From positions 293,048-357,047 of the forward strand of contig CAVYBO010000002.1 of assembly GCA_963766885.1 (NCBI GenBank): 64,000 bases of DNA, written 5' to 3'. Both the position numbers and the translations under genes were made by a program. Shown here one piece after another: positions 23,964-61,529 of the stretch (position 1 is the stretch's first letter; every line of letters begins with the position of its first letter). A model generated the notes under the pieces. It ran no database searches. It was not told the DNA's origin and was given only the letters and a program-made list of their open reading frames with translations. The DNA is from an uncultured bacterium (GTDB lineage: Bacteria > Patescibacteriota > Minisyncoccia > Phycocordibacterales > CAIRYW01).

Positions 23964-24530
23964 CTAATACTTCCTTATCACCCCCTTCACTACTGCGGCG
24001 ATGTTGAGTTCTTCTTTGGGATAAATATTTTTGTATTTTTTGTTGGCGGGCTCGAGATACGGCTTGCCGTTGTTTTTGCGCAGATACTTCATCGTCCATC
24101 CACCATCCACTTCAGCAATTACAATGTCTCCCTCTTTGGGTTCCTTTTTGCGTTCCACAATCACCAAGTCGCCCTCACGAATCCCTTCATCAATCATTGA
24201 ATCTCCTTTGACTTCCAAAATATAAGTCGCTTCTTTATGTTCAATCAAATATTCATCAATACTCATCGTGTCTGAATTATCTTCCTCAGCAGCAGACGGA
24301 AATCCCGCTTCAACCAATCCAAGTATTGGAACTTCGCTCAAAGATTTATTTAAAGTTATCCTACCCTCTGCATCTTTGGAAACAATCCCCGCTTCAACAA
24401 GCTTATTGATCAGTTTATAAACCGCATTCTTGGATTTGAAACCTGTGATGTCCATTAACTCTTTATACCCCGGCATCCTTTTGTGCTTATGATAAAAAGA
24501 AATGATTTTTTCTTTGTAGGTATTAAACAT
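23964..24530 (-). CDS. lexA: LexA repressor (S24 peptidase)
   Basis: 188 aa. N-terminal winged HTH and C-terminal S24 domain with GDSM (Ser nucleophile) and catalytic Lys (MKYLRK). Confidence 0.9.
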   Translation of the reverse strand: MFNTYKEKIISFYHKHKRMPGYKELMDITGFKSKNAVYKLINKLVEAGIVSKDAEGRITLNKSLSEVPILGLVEAGFPSAAEEDNSDTMSIDEYLIEHKEATYILEVKGDSMIDEGIREGDLVIVERKKEPKEGDIVIAEVDGGWTMKYLRKNNGKPYLEPANKKYKNIYPKEELNIAAVVKGVIRKY

Positions 24531-24542
24531 GTGTTAAGAAAT

Positions 24543-24746
24543 TTAAAAAATAAAAGTTGAAACAAATTGCATTGACCTGGCGAAAATAAATCTAGGCTTT
24601 GAGAGTCTGGCAAGCTGTGCCATCAGAATTTTGTGATGCCTTGATTCTATTCTATATGAAAGACCTTTAATTATTTTAAAATCGATCGCTTTGTTAATTC
24701 TAATTATTTCCCTCTCGATCTCTTTTATTGTTTGTTGCTTGCTCAT
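24543..24746 (-). CDS. Small hypothetical protein co-transcribed upstream of lexA
   Basis: 67 aa, 12 nt upstream of lexA on the same strand. The promoter and SOS box lie immediately upstream. Confidence 0.35.
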   Translation of the reverse strand: MSKQQTIKEIEREIIRINKAIDFKIIKGLSYRIESRHHKILMAQLARLSKPRFIFARSMQFVSTFIF

Positions 24747-24752
24747 ACAATT

Positions 24753-24781
24753 AGTATAGGTGAACTCTAGTTCACTTGCAA
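24753..24781 (-). promoter_or_regulatory. Promoter of the small-ORF/lexA operon (minus strand: TTGCAA, 17 bp spacer, TATACT) with the LexA box in the spacer
   Basis: The minus strand reads TTGCAA-gtgaactagagttcacc-TATACT. The -10 lies about 7 nt before the ATG region. Confidence 0.45.
24762..24773. promoter_or_regulatory. LexA operator, Cheo-box type (GAAC-N4-GTTC; extended palindrome TGAACTCTAGTTCA)
   Basis: Perfect GAACTCTAGTTC at 24762-24773, located 16 nt upstream of the 24746 start codon and inside the promoter spacer. Confidence 0.65.
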
Positions 24782-24830
24782 GTTCGTAACTGTGGATAAC
24801 TCAACGTATGACCCTTAACAACATAATTTT

Positions 24831-25304
24831 ATGAACAAATTAAATCAACGTATAAAAGATTTAGGAAATTACCCAAGTTTTCTAAGAAGTGGTAATATGA
24901 TAAATAAGCATATGAAAACGCAAGTATCTTATCTTTTAACCACAGGGAGAGTTGTTAAGGATGAATATAAAGGGGGGCTTTATTCTTATATAGATATTTT
25001 TGAATCTATACTTATCCCTAAGAATCAAAATTTTTGGATACAAAGCTTTGTTGTAGCGGGTAAAATTTATACTTCTAAAAATGGACTTTTAAATATTGAG
25101 GTATCAATTTTAGACCCTGAAAATATAGAGTTCAAAACAAATAAACTTTCAGGTACTTTTGTAGTGGGAGATATTGAAGTAACTACGGCTTTTAACCTTA
25201 TGAAATTTGAAAAATTAGGTAGATATTTAATAAAAATAAAGGTAGATGGAGAACTCTTGGAAGATAATGATAAATTTTATCTTGAAGTGGTGAAAGAAAA
25301 ATAA
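24831..25304 (+). CDS. Hypothetical protein (passenger ORF inside the IS element)
   Basis: 157 aa, AT-rich. Begins 3 nt after the left IR. No known domain. Confidence 0.4.
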   Translation: MNKLNQRIKDLGNYPSFLRSGNMINKHMKTQVSYLLTTGRVVKDEYKGGLYSYIDIFESILIPKNQNFWIQSFVVAGKIYTSKNGLLNIEVSILDPENIEFKTNKLSGTFVVGDIEVTTAFNLMKFEKLGRYLIKIKVDGELLEDNDKFYLEVVKEK

Positions 25305-25306
25305 AT

Positions 25307-25657
25307 ATGAGTTCAAATGAACAAAAAGGGGCTTCTGATTTAGGTAAATCCGGACAAGGAGTTGATAGTCTTATTGACTTAGGTCAAATTGTTGATGATA
25401 TACAAGAACTTTCCAAATCAACAAAGGAGCTTTTTGATTCTACTAAGAAACTTCAAGAAGATGCTAAAGCTCAACAAGGAATAATTGCCAATATGTTAGC
25501 TGAATTGAGACACTCCCAAGGAATAGTATACTTTGGATTTATTATATTAATATTTATGATGATTGCTGTAATTGTAGATGTTATGGTAAATGTTTGGAAA
25601 CCAACACCCCAACTGACCACAACTATCCCCCAAATAATTTATGTCAAAGGACAATAA
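25307..25657 (+). CDS. Hypothetical protein with a C-terminal TM helix (passenger ORF inside the IS element)
   Basis: 116 aa. N-terminal coiled-coil-like region, C-terminal TM (IVYFGFIILIFMMIAVIVDVMVNVW). Starts 2 nt after the previous ORF. Confidence 0.4.
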   Translation: MSSNEQKGASDLGKSGQGVDSLIDLGQIVDDIQELSKSTKELFDSTKKLQEDAKAQQGIIANMLAELRHSQGIVYFGFIILIFMMIAVIVDVMVNVWKPTPQLTTTIPQIIYVKGQ

Positions 25658-25671
25658 GTCAGATTTTCTTT

Positions 25672-26541
25672 CTATCTTGAAGCGTGCAATAAGGCACCCA
25701 TTAAAGCGGAAAAACGCTGATTGTCGTTGTGCCGATTGTTATAATGAAAGACAAAAGCATCAAGGTAAGACTGCAAATGCTCCTTTGAAATAGCCTTGTA
25801 GGTGCCTTTTATACTTCTTTTCAAATGAGCAAAAAAGGTCTCAATCGTATTGATGTGAATATCACCTCTGGCAAATTCTCTTTTGTGGTGGTCTACTGCT
25901 ACTCTGTCGTGTGTCTTGTCGCTTCTTAAGTAAACTTTGCTACTGTCCGTCATTATTGTTGTAGCTTTGATTTCTATGTTCCTTGCTACAAAGTCGCTCA
26001 TACTTTTTGCTGTAGCATCTGGCATAACTTCCGCTTTGATGTTTCCTCCTCGTTCTACTGCGATTGTAACAACAGATTTTTTAGCCATTACCTCGCTCAA
26101 ATTCTCATTGTTTTTTCCAGCGTAGTGTCTGCCTCCAAAGTATCCAGTATCAATTTCAATATCGCCTCTTAATTTTGTATCGCTTTGCTTTAAAGCTTTT
26201 CTAATCATTGAAAGGATCCTCCAAGCACATTTGTAGGTTACGCCAAGCTGTCTTTCCAATTCTTTTGCTGAAATTCCGCTTTTAGCGTTAGAGAAAACAA
26301 AGACAGCGTGGAACCATAGAGAAAGCGGAGTATCTGACTTATGGAATATAGTGTTAGCTGTAGGTGCAATCTGATAACGGCACTTACTGCATTGATACTG
26401 CTTTCTGCCCTTAATCCTCTTGTATTCGCCGCCACAAGAGCATTTCTTGGAATGTAGAGTGTTATAGATAAAATCAAGGCAAGCTTCTTCATTAGGGAAA
26501 TCCGCCTTTAGATTTCTAATGGAATATTTTGTGTTTTTCAT
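25672..26541 (-). CDS. IS1595-family transposase (N-terminal zinc ribbon + DDE domain)
   Basis: 289 aa. N-terminal C-x2-C...C-x2-C ribbon (KCSCGGEY...CSKCRYQ) and a DDE region with IEIDTGYFGG, typical of DDE_Tnp_IS1595. Confidence 0.85.
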   Translation of the reverse strand: MKNTKYSIRNLKADFPNEEACLDFIYNTLHSKKCSCGGEYKRIKGRKQYQCSKCRYQIAPTANTIFHKSDTPLSLWFHAVFVFSNAKSGISAKELERQLGVTYKCAWRILSMIRKALKQSDTKLRGDIEIDTGYFGGRHYAGKNNENLSEVMAKKSVVTIAVERGGNIKAEVMPDATAKSMSDFVARNIEIKATTIMTDSSKVYLRSDKTHDRVAVDHHKREFARGDIHINTIETFFAHLKRSIKGTYKAISKEHLQSYLDAFVFHYNNRHNDNQRFSALMGALLHASR

Positions 26542-26619
26542 AAATACAGTATATACCCTGTAATTATGTTGTCAAGGGATAAGCTTGGATAACTCTTGGA
26601 AATTGAGAGTTTAATCTCC

Positions 26620-27036
26620 CTAAGACTTTATTTTTGTATATGTTTGAACGATTATAAAACGGGTATGCTCTGGCATTGCCAAAGAAACAGCCTTATCTCT
26701 AAATGTATCGACATCAACAAGTCCATAATACATCATATCCCTTAACTCCTCACTTGACGGTCCAAGTAGCTTGCTTGCAAGAAAATATCCAGCGGTTATT
26801 CCGACTTCTTCCTTAGTCAAATCATTTTCTTTTTTAGCCAATAAATATGAAACTAGATCCTGGTCAAGAGTTTGAAGCCTTATAAATATTTGATCAAGAA
26901 TATCTGCTTCTTCTTCAGAAGGTTTTTTATCCTCAATAATTCTTTGCGCGTAATCATTCAGAAAGAAATGCAACTCCGGTTTAACAGCTGGCATTGAATC
27001 AAGGCTTTGTTGAAATGAGTCTGGGTTATACGGCAT
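26620..27036 (-). CDS. Hypothetical protein
   Basis: 138 aa. Overlaps the end of the 1188-aa gene by 11 nt, suggesting an operon. No domain recognised. Confidence 0.4.
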   Translation of the reverse strand: MPYNPDSFQQSLDSMPAVKPELHFFLNDYAQRIIEDKKPSEEEADILDQIFIRLQTLDQDLVSYLLAKKENDLTKEEVGITAGYFLASKLLGPSSEELRDMMYYGLVDVDTFRDKAVSLAMPEHTRFIIVQTYTKIKS

Positions 27037-30000
27037 AATTTTTTGTCTTGGCAGAATTATTTGTAATAGAATCTTTATTATCCTTTAAAAGCTCCTCCAT
27101 TCTCTTATTAAAATTATTTAATAAAATTTGGGATTTGTGGGTAATCATTTCCTCCGACGCGCCTTGGACATAATAATATCCTTCCCGCATTTTTCCATCT
27201 CTATCAAAAATTGACTGCTGAGGAGTCCCGCTATCGTCTGAAATTTTATATCCCTCATTTTTCATGACAGAAAGCATTGAGGCGGCATTAACTGAACTGT
27301 TATCAAGCTGTGTCTTTCTTTTGCCTGTTGGAGCCTTTAGAAAAAGATTATTGACTCTGACCAAACCATTTACAAAATCAGTTTGTTGACCCTGAAAAAG
27401 AAGATTCTCGTTAATTTTAAATCTTTCCCTAAATTCATCTGAATCAGCATCCAAATTACCAAGCAGTTTCTTGTTTCGCGCAATATCAATATGTTCAGCT
27501 GTGTCAACAAATTCGCCATCGGGCAAAACCACATAACCATTAAACTCACTGTCGCCAAATGATTCATTGTGCTCGCGCAAAGCATTGGTAATTTGTTTTT
27601 CCAATTGCAACCATTCAAAAAGTATCTGCCGTTCTTGATTTGAACTAAACGGTTCAGCAAGCATTTTGCGCTCTTTTAAAAACCCATCAAGTTCCTCTTC
27701 ATAATCTGGAAGCTGATCAATAAATTCATTATTAAATAATTCGCTTTGTCTGGTGTACTTGGAATAACCTGTGTATTTATTAAACAACTGAATTGCGATT
27801 CCAGCATGGTATGAAGTCAGAATTGATCTCTCAAATTGCTCAAAGCTGTCTGTTGCCATTCCTTTGATCTCTACCCTTTCTCCGCGTGTTTGAGCAAAAT
27901 ATTTATCCAGACTATTTGAAACAGGATACTTAGCGCGCAACACTTCTCTACCGGCATTAATTCCGGTGAGGCTTGCCATAGTCATAGCATTATGCAAAAA
28001 ACATGCACTTGAATCTGCCGCCAACCCACCCTCTCCACCCAAGTTGAGATGATATCCTCTGGCAGCCGATGGATATTTCTCAAAATTAAAATCCAAAAAT
28101 CCTGCGTCCTGCAAAAGTTTTACTTCGGCGATCAATATGTATGGGTTATCAGTCGGCCTTATTGCAATTTCATGCACCCCATCACCTCCAGAAGAAATTC
28201 CCGCACTTCTATTAACAAGCTCAATATCACCGTTGTATCCAAACGCACTTATTTTAGAATATTCTGTTGCCAAAGAATGCCCCACTTCATACTCAATGCC
28301 AAAAGAGACTTTGGTTCCCGAGGGAATATTGTCCCGACTATACAAATCCAAAACTTTTTCTATTTTAGCCATTTTTTCTATGAACGCATCCTCATCGTCC
28401 AATCCGTATGCCACAATAGCCAGTGCCATCAAAGTCTCGCCTTTTGGCCCGTATTTATCTCTAAACAACTCCACTTTTTCCTTTACCCTAGGACTTAAAT
28501 CTTCTGGGTTTTCTTTTACTGAAAAAGATTGCTCTATTCGCTTTATTTTTGAAAGCTTGGTTTCTCTTTCTTGATTTTCTTCAATTTTCCCAAAATCGGC
28601 TAATTTCTTTTCAAAGAAAATATCTCGATATTGTTTTGATTCCAGAAAACCGAATCTTCTGGAATTAAAATCATTTACTAAAAATATCTCCATAGCTTTT
28701 TCAACCGGCAATGCAATAATATCAGGTGTTAAATTTTGAAACGTCTCTATTGTTAGTACTCTATCGCTATATTTAATCATTCTGTCTACGAACTCAAGTG
28801 CGCCAGGCATTTTGATAAGATGAATATATAAATAATAATCGTTATAACTTAGAGGCCGTTCTCCAAATAATTTTTTAATCTCTAAAAACTTTTCTAGTTG
28901 GTCTAGAACACCGGATTCAGATAATTCCAAAATAGTTCTAGGATCGCTGATCGTATAACCAAAGATAGTTTTCATTTTTTCAAGAATTTCAGCGCAGTTG
29001 TCTATCTTCGCCAGCTCTATATATTTTGGATAGTTATGAAAAAAGTTCTCCCCCTTGAATAAACCTGCAATTTCTACAACCTTCGGAGTAAGTACAAGCT
29101 CCATATCCTGTTTATAATTTTTATATAAAAAAAATACATCCTGCCACTCTGTTTTAAAATTAAAAGATGTTGTTCCTTCAAAAGCATCACGAAATTTTTT
29201 GGCAAATGGATCAAAAATAAACTGCTTAAAATCATTATCTTTCATCCTCTCAGCAATAGTTTTTAGACCTTCTAAAACAGAATATCGATTATCCATGTAA
29301 ATCTGAAGAAGATTCACTTCTTCCATAATTGAAAAATAAGCGAAGACCTCCTTCCAATAAGGCTTAATATCACTAATTATTCGAACATTTTCAACCATTC
29401 CTTCAATATATAATTTTTCACCCACTATCTCAGAAATCTTTTCCAGATAGGAAATACTTTCTTGGTCTTTCAAAATTATTTCCATTTTTTTGACCTTGGC
29501 AGTCAAATCTTCTTCAGTACTTCCCTCGTAAAAACCGTCAAATATCCTATTAACAAGGCTTTGCGTGTCGGAAAAAGAATCCAATTTGATAATATCTTCC
29601 AAAACGCTTTTGTCTTTCAAAGATAAAATTCTCTCCAAAATGGCGTTATTTCTTTCAAAGGAGTATGTTACAAAATTGCCGTTGAATTTTTTGCAAAAGT
29701 CCATAGCTGTAGCATCTTCAAGCAATTTCTTCATTATTTTGAGAGATTCTGGACTAGGATACAGCTTTATTCCTGTTTCGGCGAAAAACTTCTCCAGAGT
29801 TTCTTTGTTTTTTTCTGCAAAATCAAGATCTTCTTTGTCGCCAACAAGTACTTTCGCTAAATCAACCGCATTTACATCCTCAGCAAAAGAACTTCGGCCC
29901 AGGCTTGCAGGAATAGTAAATCCACTCTCTTTCATTTTTTCAAGCGCATCGATCGCCCCATCTGAATCAGCAAAATAAAGCAGAGAATCAAAATCCCTGT

Positions 30001-30592
30001 ATCGAAAGGTGTCCGGATGAAATCCAAATCCCATGCGTTCCAGGCGTGTAATCGTGGTTATTGGATCATTAGTCTTCCCTATCAACTCTGGCAATTTCGC
30101 CACCGATTCTCTATCTAATTTGCGGGACTCCCTTTTATATACGTCTGATTGGTAGTAAACAGGACTTTCAATAAATTCCTGCAAAGCCACAACATCTTCT
30201 GGGTTCTTTATTCCTTTAATTTCATTTATTTTAACCCTGAAAGAATTTTTTATTCTGGAAATAAAAGAGCTTTTTGCCACAGCTTCTTTTTCTTCTTCAA
30301 GGCTGCTAATTTTTACAGGCTCAGAATTGCTTTTGTTTTCTGAAGATTTCGGCGGTGTTTTTTCTGCAGCCACCTTTGCTTTGAGCTTATTTCTTTCGGC
30401 AATCATATGCCCGAAACGAAGCATGGATTTTTGATATGCAATTTCGACTTGCTCTTTGTATTTTCTCTCCCGAGCCGATTCAGGGCTTTCTAAATCTGAG
30501 ATTTGCTCTTCGGTCGTCGTCAATTCTTGTTTCCCCTCCTCTGATTCAAAGTCAGTATTTTCTTTTCTGTTTTTTAAGAGATTTTCCGTCAT
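27026..30592 (-). CDS. Large (1188 aa) cytoplasmic hypothetical protein; C-terminal region possibly glutamine-synthetase-like carboxylate-amine ligase (amidoligase)
   Basis: Acidic/KE-rich disordered N-terminus, a long alpha-helical middle, and a C-terminal segment with GIEYEVGH ... VHEIAIRP ... ARGYHLNLGGEGG, reminiscent of the GxExE strand of GS/GCS2-type ligases. The domain call is tentative. Confidence 0.5.
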   Translation of the reverse strand: MTENLLKNRKENTDFESEEGKQELTTTEEQISDLESPESARERKYKEQVEIAYQKSMLRFGHMIAERNKLKAKVAAEKTPPKSSENKSNSEPVKISSLEEEKEAVAKSSFISRIKNSFRVKINEIKGIKNPEDVVALQEFIESPVYYQSDVYKRESRKLDRESVAKLPELIGKTNDPITTITRLERMGFGFHPDTFRYRDFDSLLYFADSDGAIDALEKMKESGFTIPASLGRSSFAEDVNAVDLAKVLVGDKEDLDFAEKNKETLEKFFAETGIKLYPSPESLKIMKKLLEDATAMDFCKKFNGNFVTYSFERNNAILERILSLKDKSVLEDIIKLDSFSDTQSLVNRIFDGFYEGSTEEDLTAKVKKMEIILKDQESISYLEKISEIVGEKLYIEGMVENVRIISDIKPYWKEVFAYFSIMEEVNLLQIYMDNRYSVLEGLKTIAERMKDNDFKQFIFDPFAKKFRDAFEGTTSFNFKTEWQDVFFLYKNYKQDMELVLTPKVVEIAGLFKGENFFHNYPKYIELAKIDNCAEILEKMKTIFGYTISDPRTILELSESGVLDQLEKFLEIKKLFGERPLSYNDYYLYIHLIKMPGALEFVDRMIKYSDRVLTIETFQNLTPDIIALPVEKAMEIFLVNDFNSRRFGFLESKQYRDIFFEKKLADFGKIEENQERETKLSKIKRIEQSFSVKENPEDLSPRVKEKVELFRDKYGPKGETLMALAIVAYGLDDEDAFIEKMAKIEKVLDLYSRDNIPSGTKVSFGIEYEVGHSLATEYSKISAFGYNGDIELVNRSAGISSGGDGVHEIAIRPTDNPYILIAEVKLLQDAGFLDFNFEKYPSAARGYHLNLGGEGGLAADSSACFLHNAMTMASLTGINAGREVLRAKYPVSNSLDKYFAQTRGERVEIKGMATDSFEQFERSILTSYHAGIAIQLFNKYTGYSKYTRQSELFNNEFIDQLPDYEEELDGFLKERKMLAEPFSSNQERQILFEWLQLEKQITNALREHNESFGDSEFNGYVVLPDGEFVDTAEHIDIARNKKLLGNLDADSDEFRERFKINENLLFQGQQTDFVNGLVRVNNLFLKAPTGKRKTQLDNSSVNAASMLSVMKNEGYKISDDSGTPQQSIFDRDGKMREGYYYVQGASEEMITHKSQILLNNFNKRMEELLKDNKDSITNNSAKTKNYAV

Positions 30593-37664: not shown

Positions 37665-37790
37665 CTCCCAACTTTGTTTGCTTGCGCAAGTTTTCTTTCC
37701 TCAATTTGAAATAACTTACTGAGGTAATAATACTCTCTGTCAAAAAGCTGTCAAATAGGGGGTGTGGATAACTTTTTTAGTCTTCTTTAA

Positions 37791-52958: not shown

Positions 52959-54359
52959 TTAATATCTTGTATCTACATAATATCCATTCCTACCATTGCA
53001 AGGATAGCCATCTTTAGTTTTATGGGGACTTAATGTCACATTACCATATGTGCTTCTAGTAAAGCGTCTACCACAATAACTACATTCATAAATATATTTC
53101 GGACCAGAAAAACTTCTCGCTATAACAGATCTATGTCTTGCCGCACGAAATGGTTTGTTTATATCAAAAAAATAAGGATTTTCTGGTCTTTCTCCGGATT
53201 TGGATAACTCTATTTGATATCGAGGAATAAATTTTTCTTCTGTGTTTACTATCCCTTCAACTTTATCTGCAACAAAACATCTTACACCGACTCCGCTACC
53301 ACCACTAAGATTATAGGCGTAAAAATACTCCCGTTGAGATCCGTCCTTGCGTTGCATATATTTTAGCGAGTATGGTTCAATCATTCTATCTGAATCTGTG
53401 TAACGGATTTTCAAAAGAGTTTGTTCTCTTGCACCTTTCATTATTACTGCACGCGCCTCAGGACTGAAATATACAAACTGAGCATACCCGTTGTCGGTAT
53501 AAATACCAAAAAGAGATTCAACGTCAGATACAAAAGATGTGATAGCATCTTCTACATCAATAAAAAGTTGTTTTGCACAGACTATACCTTTTACCCAATA
53601 GGTTCTGAAATAATCAAAAGCTGTCATCTTCAGTACATCTTTTAACGCGTAAGGATTTCTTTCAAAAATGGTCTTTTTTACAAAGGTTTGTACCACCTCC
53701 TCTTTATTCAAGTTTCCTCCTAACAACCGGATTGAGTGGACATAGTCAAACAAATCTGGAGCATGCTGTCTTTGCATTAAACATTTTAGTTTTGTTGCAA
53801 TTATCTCCTCAAGTTTCATACACCTGATCTTACATACGACCTCAGCAGCATCAGAATAAGGATGAATAAGATAAACATCTTGTATATCGAGAAGAACTTT
53901 ATCGAATCTAGTGATATCCATCGATATCTTTATTTTCATATGATCTGATCCTCCATTAAAATCCTTAAAATAGATTCGTGCTTCATATACTTTCAAGCCA
54001 GGTATTGGGGCTTCGGCTGCTGCAAACTTTTCTTCAATTTTATTATCTTCTTTAACAAAAGTTATACCTGCTTTTTCCTGAATAAAATCACAAACCTTAT
54101 TGATTTCACCCAATAGTAAATTTTGATCAATATCACCCATGATTCCAAAATCTAAGTCTGAAGAAAATCGAGTATTTTCAAAATACCCTTTACGAAGAGC
54201 ATTTCCTCCTTTTAGAAAGATCTCATTTTTTAGATCACTTATTGTGAAAAGGCCAAAAAGAAACCAGCCAAATAGATAATCCCTTTCGACGTTGGTCGGG
54301 TGAATCTCAAATTCTTTTGATTTCGCTTCAATTTCGTCTCTTAGAATCATAACCGCCAT
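52959..54359 (-). CDS. AbiEii/DUF1814-type nucleotidyltransferase fused to a WYL domain and C-terminal zinc ribbon
   Basis: 466 aa. NTase core FLKGGNALRKGYFENTRFSSDLDFG (AbiEii KGGTAL...RFSEDIDF-like pol-beta fold). WYL-like LLKIRYTDSDRMIEPYSLKYMQ...REYFYAYN...VRCFVADKVEGI. C-terminal YECSYCGRRF...CNGRNG. Confidence 0.7.
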   Translation of the reverse strand: MAVMILRDEIEAKSKEFEIHPTNVERDYLFGWFLFGLFTISDLKNEIFLKGGNALRKGYFENTRFSSDLDFGIMGDIDQNLLLGEINKVCDFIQEKAGITFVKEDNKIEEKFAAAEAPIPGLKVYEARIYFKDFNGGSDHMKIKISMDITRFDKVLLDIQDVYLIHPYSDAAEVVCKIRCMKLEEIIATKLKCLMQRQHAPDLFDYVHSIRLLGGNLNKEEVVQTFVKKTIFERNPYALKDVLKMTAFDYFRTYWVKGIVCAKQLFIDVEDAITSFVSDVESLFGIYTDNGYAQFVYFSPEARAVIMKGAREQTLLKIRYTDSDRMIEPYSLKYMQRKDGSQREYFYAYNLSGGSGVGVRCFVADKVEGIVNTEEKFIPRYQIELSKSGERPENPYFFDINKPFRAARHRSVIARSFSGPKYIYECSYCGRRFTRSTYGNVTLSPHKTKDGYPCNGRNGYYVDTRY

Positions 54360-57834: not shown

Positions 57835-58035
57835 TTTTTAAACGCAAAAAGCCCACCACATAGGTGATTGCTTTCGCAACCCATATCGGTTTCCCAATAT
57901 GACCAGTAACGGTGACCCCATATGATGGGTTCTTTATTCGTTACTGGTTTTTTGCCATGCCATTAAAAATTAATGGTTTAGGCCCTATTTAGTTGTAAAG
58001 AAATTATAACCCAAACTTTTAAAAATTACTCCTTC

Positions 58036-60003: not shown

Positions 60004-61518
60004 ATGAAATACATACTTTACTGCCGAAAATCAACAGAATCAGAAGACAGACAGGTTCTATCATTAGAATCCCAAAGAAAAGAACTCTTGGATTTGGCAA
60101 AATATGAAGACCTTGAAATTATTCTGACTCTTGAAGAAAGCAAATCGGCCAAAGAGCCAGGCCGTCCTATTTTTAACGAAATGCTTCAGATGATTTCTTC
60201 AGGAAAAGCAGATGCTATTCTCTGTTGGAAAATTGATCGTCTCACAAGAAATCCTGTTGATGGCGGACAAGTACAATGGCTTCTTCAAAACGGAATGATT
60301 AAACACATAAGAACTTTTGAAAAAAGTTTCTATTCTAACGATAATGTTTTGCTTATGGGTATTGAACAGGCTATGGCTAATCAATACGTTATAGATTTAA
60401 GTCTGAATGTTAAAAGAGGTCATCGTACAAAACTTGAAAAGGGCGACTGGCCTAATAAAGCTCCTTTTGGATATATCAACGATAAAGTCAGCAAAACTAT
60501 TAAGATTGATAAAAAATTTGGCTCATATGTTTTTAGAGCCTTTGAATTATATTCAACAGGTGGATACACGTTAAAACAAATTTCAGATATTTTGTATCAA
60601 GAAGGAATGAGAACAAAAACTGGAAATAAGATTAAGAAGAGCCAAATTCACAGAATTCTACACAATAAGCTTTACTGTGGCTTGATGGAGAAAGACGGAA
60701 AAACATATCATGGCAATCATGAAGCATTAATCTCTGTTTCTCTATTTAATAAAGTTGATGATGTTTTGCATGGCAGGCATCATCCTCGTCCAAATATACA
60801 CTTCTATTCTGCACGTGGATTTCTATCTTGTGCTTCTTGTGAATGTACTTTAACTACTGATACAAAAAAAGGTTACATTTATTATTACTGCACTAATGGC
60901 AAAGGAAACTGTGAGCAACATAAAAAATATCTAAGATCGGAAATGATTGATTCTCTTCTTTCAAGTATGTTCAAGGAACTGGCCTTTGACAAAGAGTTGA
61001 TTGAAATGGCTGCAGAAGCCTATAAAGAGAGAAATGAGCTCAAAAACGACTATACTGCTTCAAGCATAGAAAACCTCTCTAATGAGCTTAATTCTCTTCT
61101 GGAAAAAGAATCTGCCCTCGTAGATGGATATAGTTCTAAGATAATACGTGAAGAAGTTTATAGAGCCAAGGTTCAGGAAATACAAAACAAACGCATAGAA
61201 ATTGAGAAACAAATCAAAGAAACTGAAGCTAAAGGCGGAATAAGTAAAGTCACTTTCGAACAGATCAAAAATGTCTTTTTAGATAGTAGTAGAGCCTCAG
61301 AAACGTATTTGGAACTTACGGAAGAAGAAAAGAGAAAGATGCTAGAAAAATTACTTTCGAACGCTTCTATAGAAAACCAAAAAATCGTTAAATACCAATT
61401 CAAAAGTCCATATCAGATACTTGCAAATACCTCAAAAAATACCGATTTGGAAACACTACTGCGGGACCTGGATTCGAACCAAGATACCCTGCTCCAGAGG
61501 CAGATGTCCTACCATTAG
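60004..61518 (+). CDS. Large serine recombinase (resolvase/invertase catalytic domain + recombinase + zinc-ribbon + coiled coil)
   Basis: 504 aa. N-terminal YCRKSTESEDRQVLSLESQ (catalytic Ser), DRLTRN, and a downstream Cys cluster (CASCEC...CTNGKGNC). The last approx. 20 codons overlap tRNA-Gln on the opposite strand, so the true C-terminus may be shorter. Confidence 0.85.
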   Translation: MKYILYCRKSTESEDRQVLSLESQRKELLDLAKYEDLEIILTLEESKSAKEPGRPIFNEMLQMISSGKADAILCWKIDRLTRNPVDGGQVQWLLQNGMIKHIRTFEKSFYSNDNVLLMGIEQAMANQYVIDLSLNVKRGHRTKLEKGDWPNKAPFGYINDKVSKTIKIDKKFGSYVFRAFELYSTGGYTLKQISDILYQEGMRTKTGNKIKKSQIHRILHNKLYCGLMEKDGKTYHGNHEALISVSLFNKVDDVLHGRHHPRPNIHFYSARGFLSCASCECTLTTDTKKGYIYYYCTNGKGNCEQHKKYLRSEMIDSLLSSMFKELAFDKELIEMAAEAYKERNELKNDYTASSIENLSNELNSLLEKESALVDGYSSKIIREEVYRAKVQEIQNKRIEIEKQIKETEAKGGISKVTFEQIKNVFLDSSRASETYLELTEEEKRKMLEKLLSNASIENQKIVKYQFKSPYQILANTSKNTDLETLLRDLDSNQDTLLQRQMSYH

Positions 61519-61529
61519 ACGATCCCGCA
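61459..61529 (-). tRNA. tRNA-Gln (anticodon CUG)
   Basis: Minus-strand sequence TGCGGGATCGTCTAATGGTAGGACATCTGCCTCTGGAGCAGGGTATCTTGGTTCGAATCCAGGTCCCGCAG folds into a cloverleaf. 7-bp acceptor with U1-A72, D-loop AATGGTA, anticodon loop CTCTGGA (U33, CUG, G37), T-loop TTCGAAT, discriminator G. CCA not encoded. Confidence 0.85.

Follow-up and report, generated by a model that had tools for sequence, protein, structure and literature searches.

A transporter insertion sequence of the IS1595 family beside a lexA promoter in a Patescibacteria genome and the DnaA-box-like target preference of its clade

The DNA considered here is a stretch of 64,000 nucleotides from an uncultured bacterium of the Patescibacteria/candidate phyla radiation (CPR) (contig CAVYBO010000002.1, positions 293,048 to 357,047), which is called the window in its whole length. 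Beside the promoter of an operon made of a small open reading frame (ORF) and lexA, it holds a transposase gene, two passenger ORFs on the opposite strand, a pair of terminal inverted repeats enclosing all three genes and a short direct repeat on both sides (Table 1). This feature is interpreted, with a probability of roughly 80%, as a “transporter IS”, i.e. an insertion sequence (IS) with passenger genes, belonging to an IS1595-family clade of Patescibacteria/CPR with a DnaA-box-like target. The element of the window taken alone is one more cargo-carrying member of IS1595, and the useful part is the pattern seen across its clade, in which a simple DDE insertion sequence uses a target sharply defined over 12 bp, corresponding to a replication-initiator consensus site that the element ends restore.

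Table 1. Coordinates of the element, of the lexA promoter region and of other features of the window
Feature	Position	Strand	Remarks
Whole IS1595-family element	24803-26587		1,785 bp; 8-bp duplication rule of the relatives applied to the window
Left target-site duplication GATAACTC	24795..24802	+	identical to 26588-26595; 8-bp rule, 48 relatives
Right target-site duplication GATAACTC	26588..26595	+	joined to the element end gives TTATCCAAG, a 7/9 rebuilt box
Transposase-distal terminal inverted repeat AACGTATGA-CCCTTAACAACATAATT	24803..24828	+	aligns with distal ends of relatives, e.g. CACACC TCTCCCTTAACGACATAA
Transposase-proximal terminal inverted repeat, from the end inwards CAAGCTTAT-CCCTTGACAACATAATT	26562..26587	-	core TATCCCTTGACAACATAA exact in >120 public contigs
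IS1595-family DDE transposase, 289 aa	25672..26541	-	D131, D199, E234, K241 and CxC...CxxC zinc ribbon present
Predicted transposase promoter	26548..26575	-	TTGACA within the inverted repeat, N16, TATACT, 6 nt to ATG; scores 11/12
Passenger ORF1, 157 aa, DUF6941-like immunoglobulin (Ig)-type beta-sandwich	24831..25304	+	conserved core from ~M28 (ATG at 24912)
Passenger ORF2, 116 aa	25307..25657	+	coiled-coil N-terminal part, C-terminal transmembrane helix
Native target motif, perfect match to the DnaA-box consensus TTATCCACA	24791..24799	-	unbroken on the side facing lexA
Small-ORF/lexA operon promoter	24753..24781	-	TTGCAA, N17, TATACT; LexA operator GAACTAGAGTTC (24762-24773) in the spacer
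Host operon beside the element	23964-24746	-	67-aa small ORF (24543-24746) and lexA (23964-24530, 188 aa)
Right-hand neighbours of the element	26620-27036 (138 aa), 27026-30592 (1,188 aa)	-	no Pfam match
Second perfect box AGTTATCCACA/AAGTTATCCACA	37763-37771	-	8 nt upstream of a TTGACA-N16-TATTAT promoter; no element
LOOT RNA (RF03000)	57866-57984	-	91 bits, well above gathering score
tRNA	61459-61529	-	

Transposase, ends and boundaries of the element

The transposase scores well above the cut-offs of two family models, NF033547 (166.3 bits, cut-off 75) and PF12762 (E 5e-29, 101.8 bits, cut-off 27), and aligns end to end with its homologues at 63-86% identity. Many homologues, with 60-86% identity, come from Patescibacteria/CPR assemblies. 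Among 24 of them, C34, C36, C51, C54, D131, D199 and K241 are invariant and E234 is kept in at least 90%; the K/R located seven residues past the third catalytic residue is represented in the window transposase by K241 after E234. The Pfam zinc-ribbon model reaches 16 bits on this protein, under its cut-off of 25. Model scores, zinc ribbon and DDE-type triad, inverted ends and an 8-bp duplication thus all agree with IS1595, the family to which a sequence-only reading of this DNA had already assigned the element. The layout of the predicted transposase promoter is kept in the relatives, and its mRNA would be leaderless because only 6 nt separate TATACT from the ATG. A terminator-like site was looked for after the transposase gene and inside the element, and none was found.

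The boundaries were derived from the relatives, for which 24 close genome loci, 120 metagenome loci with the exact end core TATCCCTTGACAACATAA and the loci of the nearest proteins were used (individual loci are cited below by L numbers). The proximal end always lies 40-46 bp upstream of the transposase start codon and reads CACRCN-TATCCCTTGACAACATAAT, an inverted copy of this end is found 0.6-2.8 kb past the transposase stop, and the same 8 bp abut both. Identical 8-bp duplications next to CACRCN-TATCCCTTGAC ends were found in 17 of the 18 relatives from genomes and, with the metagenome loci included, 48 distinct complete elements with perfect 8-bp duplications were obtained, ranging from 955 to 3,665 bp (median 1,990). 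In these 48 the duplication abuts ends beginning with CAC or AAC, and this is the rule that was applied to the window.

The sequence-only reading had placed the boundaries correctly to within 2 bp and had described an identical 10-bp direct repeat on both sides. The exact 10-mer TGGATAACTC is indeed present at 24793-24802 and 26586-26595, with a third copy at 53201 (0.07 expected in the 64-kb window), and it contains a real target duplication. It is nevertheless two bases too long, because the element ends in ...TG and the target TGTG/GATAACTC has, by chance, a TG at the corresponding place; the true duplication has 8 bp, and the limits of the element are corrected to those of Table 1. The 17-bp inverted repeats reported at the same time were recovered as CCCTTAACAACATAATT (24812-24828) and CCCTTGACAACATAATT (26562-26578), matched at 16 of 17 positions, and represent the conserved core of ends that are 26 nt long. 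The conditions that the sequence-only reading had named as refuting it also turned out in its favour, since the relatives carry the ends at the same positions relative to the transposase gene with duplications flanking. The window holds a genuine IS1595-family transporter IS; both its transposase and its ends appear intact, and it may still be mobile.

Target choice of the clade

A total of 123 distinct proximal junctions were compared, many of which have flanks unrelated to each other. Thirty-nine read ...TGTG/GATAACnn/IS and 42 read ...nAGTTATC/IS, about two-thirds of the junctions being box-like where chance would give ~1% (allowing up to one mismatch, the hexamer has a background rate of 0.5% for each position and strand). 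A further ~10 are near-misses in a shifted register. The two classes are both orientations of a single asymmetric target, with a similar frequency relative to the box. Brought into a common orientation, the junctions show N-A-G-T-T-A-T-C as the duplication, adjoined by C-A-C-A in 35-38 of 39 flanks, and the clade-wide weight matrix of the target gives T-T-A-T-C-C-A-C-A. Box-like duplications are carried by 41 of the 48 complete elements, the others being unrelated, as CAAAACAC in L004 and GAAATTTG in L006. TTATCCACA is the general DnaA-box consensus. The target of the clade is accordingly nAGTTATC^CACA, a motif that contains this consensus (a general one rather than one established for CPR), and the repeat of the window, TGGATAAC, is the preferred DnaA-box-like insertion motif of the whole clade rather than an arbitrary target.

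Because the element ends begin with CACA, the box is kept or rebuilt on both sides of an insertion: one junction retains the native box and the other forms TTATC+CACA anew. The box rebuilt in this way in the window, TTATCCAAG, matches the consensus at 7/9 positions. It could be argued that TGGATAAC belongs to a longer element end and is carried along with it, with no duplication of the target. Such a motif would be expected beside the inverted repeat in most relatives, as is observed, and the CACA of the element end does overlap the box. The two copies are however direct while the ends are inverted, and the 8-mer varies at some positions from one element to the next, always with the same letters in both copies of a given element (CAGTTATC, CACTTATC, TATTTATC, AAGTAATC). 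Seven elements moreover have unrelated duplications, and the motif occurs without any element in L101 and at position 37763 of the window. This explanation is the least credible of those considered.

An ordinary IS1595 insertion into a random intergenic site, with a 10-bp duplication and an accidental nearness to the LexA operator that might disturb regulation, would fit the exactly repeated 10-mer and the location beside an SOS-controlled promoter. We regard it as very unlikely given the 8-bp duplications in 48 of 48 complete relatives, the motif at two-thirds of junctions in unrelated contigs and the occupation of the same position upstream of lexA in other genomes, promoter, operator and box being intact.

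Several observations were made around the motif itself. The window contains three perfect DnaA boxes, scattered and unclustered. The one at 37763 lies upstream of a promoter that precedes a 71-aa and a 461-aa ORF, both without Pfam match, in a layout like that at lexA. The box was also considered as a mark of oriC or dnaA, and no sign of either was found: the 461-aa ORF downstream of the 37763 box, having no Pfam match, was not identified as DnaA, and the window has no cluster of boxes. A hairpin TGTGG-ATAACT-CCACA at the element ends was likewise discarded, its TGTG arm being the target flank and its CACA arm the element terminus. Elsewhere in the clade, the proximal junctions of seven loci (L119, L143, L145, L146, L170, L179 and L189) define a second hot spot, which adjoins the upstream side of a conserved gene with a helix-turn-helix-like N-terminus (product M..EIFFDGVRY..LTRDYIARLCREGKI) and has two box-like motifs ~20 bp apart in its flank. 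The proximal flank of L129 shows two perfect inverted boxes 5 bp apart (AGTTATCCACATAAGCTGTGGATAACT), with the element within the second.

The lexA promoter site

On the minus strand of the window, GAGTTATCCACA is followed by N9, TTGCAA (-35), a 17-nt spacer with GAACTAGAGTTC, TATACT (-10), N6, the ATG of the 67-aa ORF and then lexA. The product of lexA scores 116.8 bits against the TIGR00498 equivalog (cut-off 110.95). The operator segment GAACTCTAGTTC at 24762-24773 is the sole GAAC-N4-GTTC of the window, and GTGAAC-N4-GTTCAC within the -35/-10 spacer is conserved in L008, L016 and L015. The same architecture of box and promoter is found in L008, L016 and L101, in which LexA is 56-67% identical to that of the window. 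The 67-aa ORF that precedes lexA has a near-leaderless start and no Pfam family, and is 40-48% identical in these three loci.

Four genomes thus have the box at a distance of 9 bp before the -35 of the lexA operon; it is occupied by an element in the window, L008 and L016 and empty in L101. In L008 and L016 the element is inserted at the exact same position, with its proximal end toward lexA where the window has the distal end. In L101 (56% LexA identity), GAGTTATCCACA is intact and the element is located elsewhere, so that the empty site which the sequence-only reading had proposed to look for in relatives does exist. In L015 an element also stands beside the LexA box, with the box in opposite orientation, and the promoter-side box is the rebuilt one. 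The box is accordingly a native and conserved part of the lexA promoter region, struck at least twice independently.

The presence of lexA-promoter elements in four genomes (window, L008, L015, L016) could also mean that an old element, possibly domesticated, has been passed on vertically at this locus within a CPR lineage; a single copy is seen here, and the transposase identity (62-68%) is similar to the LexA identity (53-67%). Vertical descent nevertheless agrees poorly with the orientation of the elements, whose distal end is toward lexA in the window and L015 and whose proximal end is toward it in L008 and L016, with their unrelated cargo, or with the empty site of L101 and its element inserted elsewhere. 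The same motif is targeted at dozens of unrelated loci, including the second hot spot, and perfect duplications are not expected to survive such divergence on the side without selection. A vertical origin is unlikely on these grounds, although it deserves more consideration than a random insertion.

The left end had been described as lying 20 bp from the LexA box, from where the element could perturb SOS regulation. A distance of ~20 bp fits the 10-bp repeat, but the first base of the element is 29 bp away from the LexA box. In the window, the lexA operon has kept every part of its promoter region (upstream box, -35, operator, -10 and leaderless start) intact, and the arrangement recurs in three other genomes. 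Since the insertion leaves this whole stretch untouched down to the start codon, and other genomes tolerate the arrangement, a disruption of SOS regulation is unlikely. Transcription that starts in the transposase gene and continues through the antisense cargo as far as the lexA region is conceivable but has no support.

Passenger genes

The two plus-strand ORFs of 157 and 116 aa that the sequence-only reading had placed within the element are confirmed there by the ORF list, and they lie inside its ends, the 8-bp duplication flanking all three ORFs. Their presence had been considered unusual for the family. The notion of passenger-carrying “transporter IS” was however defined on IS1595 itself (Siguier, Gagnevin and Chandler 2009, as cited in PMC3129680), and nearly all of the 48 complete relatives carry cargo: 46 of them exceed 1.45 kb, where a transposase and two ends need ~950 bp.

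Cargo varies between elements and is common only within small groups. L012 carries a gene for an NYN-domain protein. The cargo of L007 (4948-7913) comprises an N6/N4 DNA methylase together with a protein that has an endonuclease VII domain, plus a small-ORF pair common to L005. In L024 (4939-8603), which belongs to the same clade and is 3.7 kb long, a reverse transcriptase is combined with a bAvd-like protein, i.e. a diversity-generating retroelement as IS cargo. Short elements are also found, L092 with 1,329 bp and L089 with 955 bp. The latter (duplication CAGTTATC) is the shortest one with both ends and a perfect duplication, has no ORF >150 aa on the transposase strand, and may be a decayed or non-autonomous derivative.

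In the window, the GC content of the cargo region is ~29% vs ~39% in the transposase gene, and the closest elements, L204 and L205 (with protein identities of 86% and 80%), resemble the window element at the DNA level only as far as ~20 bp past the transposase stop. No ORF1 homologue was found in a word-indexed search. An exhaustive HMMER search returned 103 homologues, the best with 51% identity, in a family of ~128-155 aa of which some members have the N-terminal extension of ORF1 in common. Twenty-five of the 38 family members in alignment A1 match DUF6941 weakly (E up to 0.01, best 4e-7). ORF1 itself obtains 24.2 bits with this model (PF22091), below the gathering cut-off of 27, and is best described as a distant relative of DUF6941 rather than a curated member. 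An AlphaFold model computed with the family alignment predicts an Ig-like beta-sandwich (pLDDT, the confidence score of the model, 90.3) with residues 1-28 disordered, and its best fold matches are uncharacterised phage proteins of ~135 aa. The fold search in the PDB returned generic Ig-like sandwiches only (TM ~0.5), among them the Wzt carbohydrate-binding domain and RhoGDI, which are not taken as a clue to function. A PDB sequence search with the ORF1 profile gave no match. ORF2 matches PHROG 3268 “spanin” weakly (E 0.0017; E 0.00095 for its counterpart in L209). No match was obtained for ORF1 or ORF2 in NCBIfam, nor for the transposase, ORF1 or ORF2 with the PADLOC defence-system models.

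A second element, L210, has the same layout, reading GACTTATC, distal end, two cargo genes, convergent transposase, proximal end and GACTTATC. Its cargo genes encode a 151-aa ORF1 homologue (40% identity) and a 104-aa ORF2-like protein (BLASTP E 2e-6), and the homologous pair that the sequence-only reading had proposed to seek in other copies is therefore present. In the phage-like contig L209, an ORF1 homologue and an 84-aa ORF2-like gene stand beside phage tail genes; no endolysin or holin was identified at this locus. The recurrence of the pair in L210 and L209 makes ORF1 and ORF2 a module, probably a membrane-associated accessory module of two genes of phage origin. The duplication around all three ORFs and the pair in L210 suggest that the cargo is co-mobile with the transposase.

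The two ORFs might instead be host genes that became enclosed by a plain IS on one side and a stray solo inverted repeat on the other, as could be proposed from the lack of a close ORF1 homologue in the word-indexed search, from the ORF1 promoter that was not found and from the existence of cargo-less or short elements such as L089 and L092. In that case the duplication should delimit the transposase part, whereas it flanks the full 1,785 bp, and no end-like sequence follows the transposase stop codon. The homologous pair of L210 lies within its own ends and duplication, and the GC content of the ORF pair differs from that of the host flanks. Trapping is highly improbable, slightly more so than an insertion at random.

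Weighing of the evidence and proposed mechanism

A number of points weigh against the interpretation of the window element as a transporter IS of a DnaA-box-targeting clade, or limit it. The outer 9 nt of its two ends agree at just 3/9 positions, and its distal end starts with AA in place of the usual CA, although ends of the AACACC type are known in relatives. A plus-strand promoter was looked for upstream of ORF1 and no convincing one was found. The junction sample was drawn with the exact 18-mer of the proximal end, covers one sub-clade, and yields counts uncorrected for shared ancestry. About one-third of the junctions are not box-like, which makes the preference strong and not absolute. 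What argues for the motif as a working DnaA site in CPR is just its identity to the general consensus. As regards recent mobility, on which the differing outer ends also bear, the 64-kb window holds a single copy of the element, and no empty site in the same species was found by exact-protein look-ups with the transposase, ORF1, LexA and the 138-aa neighbour, which returned the same junctions only, in one further sample (ERR11630394); the empty junction predicted for the window insertion is AACTGTGGATAACTCTTGGAAATTG. Taken with the conservation of the target motif itself, these last results do not sustain the idea that the direct repeat is a sign of recent transposition: where the motif is conserved, a flanking “direct repeat” is no evidence of a recent random hop.

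The following mechanism can be proposed for the clade. A DDE transposase with an N-terminal zinc ribbon would act on 26-nt inverted ends and make an 8-bp staggered cut in a target picked by its sequence, nAGTTATC^CACA, of which nAGTTATC would be duplicated, the original box surviving on one side and a new one forming on the other. The transposase itself may read this target, as TTATCC resembles the TATCCC of its own end. In the window, the box that was struck is the native one whose distance to the -35 of the LexA-repressed promoter is 9 bp; the promoter is left intact. The cargo encodes a DUF6941-like protein with a beta-sandwich fold and a coiled-coil protein anchored in the membrane by its tail, a pair that is probably phage-derived.

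The motif could be bound by DnaA in these organisms, in agreement with the consensus it contains. A possible but tentative extension is that the clade uses the DnaA box as a landing signal, perhaps in its DnaA-bound state, and is steered in this way to regulatory or replication-linked sites that are rebuilt on both sides. If true, this would constitute a non-destructive “safe-site” strategy in the ultra-small genomes of CPR, and such targeting could offer the element a “safe site” at low cost where genomes are very compact. A rebuilt site (box, N8, TTGACA) would moreover stand directly upstream of the transposase promoter or of a cargo gene, whose expression could follow the DnaA or replication status. 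The pattern offers an explanation for the persistence of mobile elements and their cargo in gene-dense 0.6-Mb genomes. The insertions also map, in a natural way, the DnaA-box-like regulatory sites of uncultured CPR bacteria, among them the conserved box of the lexA promoter, and the clade provides a compact, sequence-targeted DDE transposase that is experimentally testable.

Comparison with known systems

No description of a DnaA-box-targeting IS, or of IS1595 in CPR, was found in the literature covered, outside of which most subscription journals remain, and the clade-wide DnaA-box-like target preference, rebuilt upon insertion, appears to be undescribed. Passenger genes are said to occur in ISfinder groups such as ISNwi1 and ISNha5. 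The clade of the window shares with the known IS1595 transporter IS a single DDE transposase whose N-terminus forms a zinc ribbon, short inverted repeats, an 8-bp duplication and passenger genes that have no part in transposition and are placed between one end and the transposase gene. It differs from them by its Patescibacteria/CPR hosts, its own end CACRCN-TATCCCTTGACAACATAAT and its strong preference for TTATCCACA as a target, which was not found described for IS1595 in the literature covered.

Several IS are known to target short host repeats or sites that resemble their own ends, such as the IS targeting repetitive extragenic palindromic (REP) sequences (PMC1525189), ISPpu9 (PMC12288879) and IS30 with its hot-spot and end targeting (PMC9333248). 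The present clade resembles them in inserting by sequence preference into a short, recurrent and mostly intergenic host motif, and IS30 in particular in having a target that resembles its own end (TTATCC vs TATCCC; CACA vs the CACA terminus). Unlike these three systems, it relies on another transposase family and another target, and the sequence it targets, which is rebuilt on both sides, is the consensus bound by an essential regulator of the host that also initiates replication. In IS50/Tn5, a DnaA box lies inside the outside end and DnaA acts as a host factor. The clade likewise joins a DnaA-box sequence to a transposon end but, in contrast with Tn5, where the box is in the end of the element, its box is the target and only the CACA half comes from the element.

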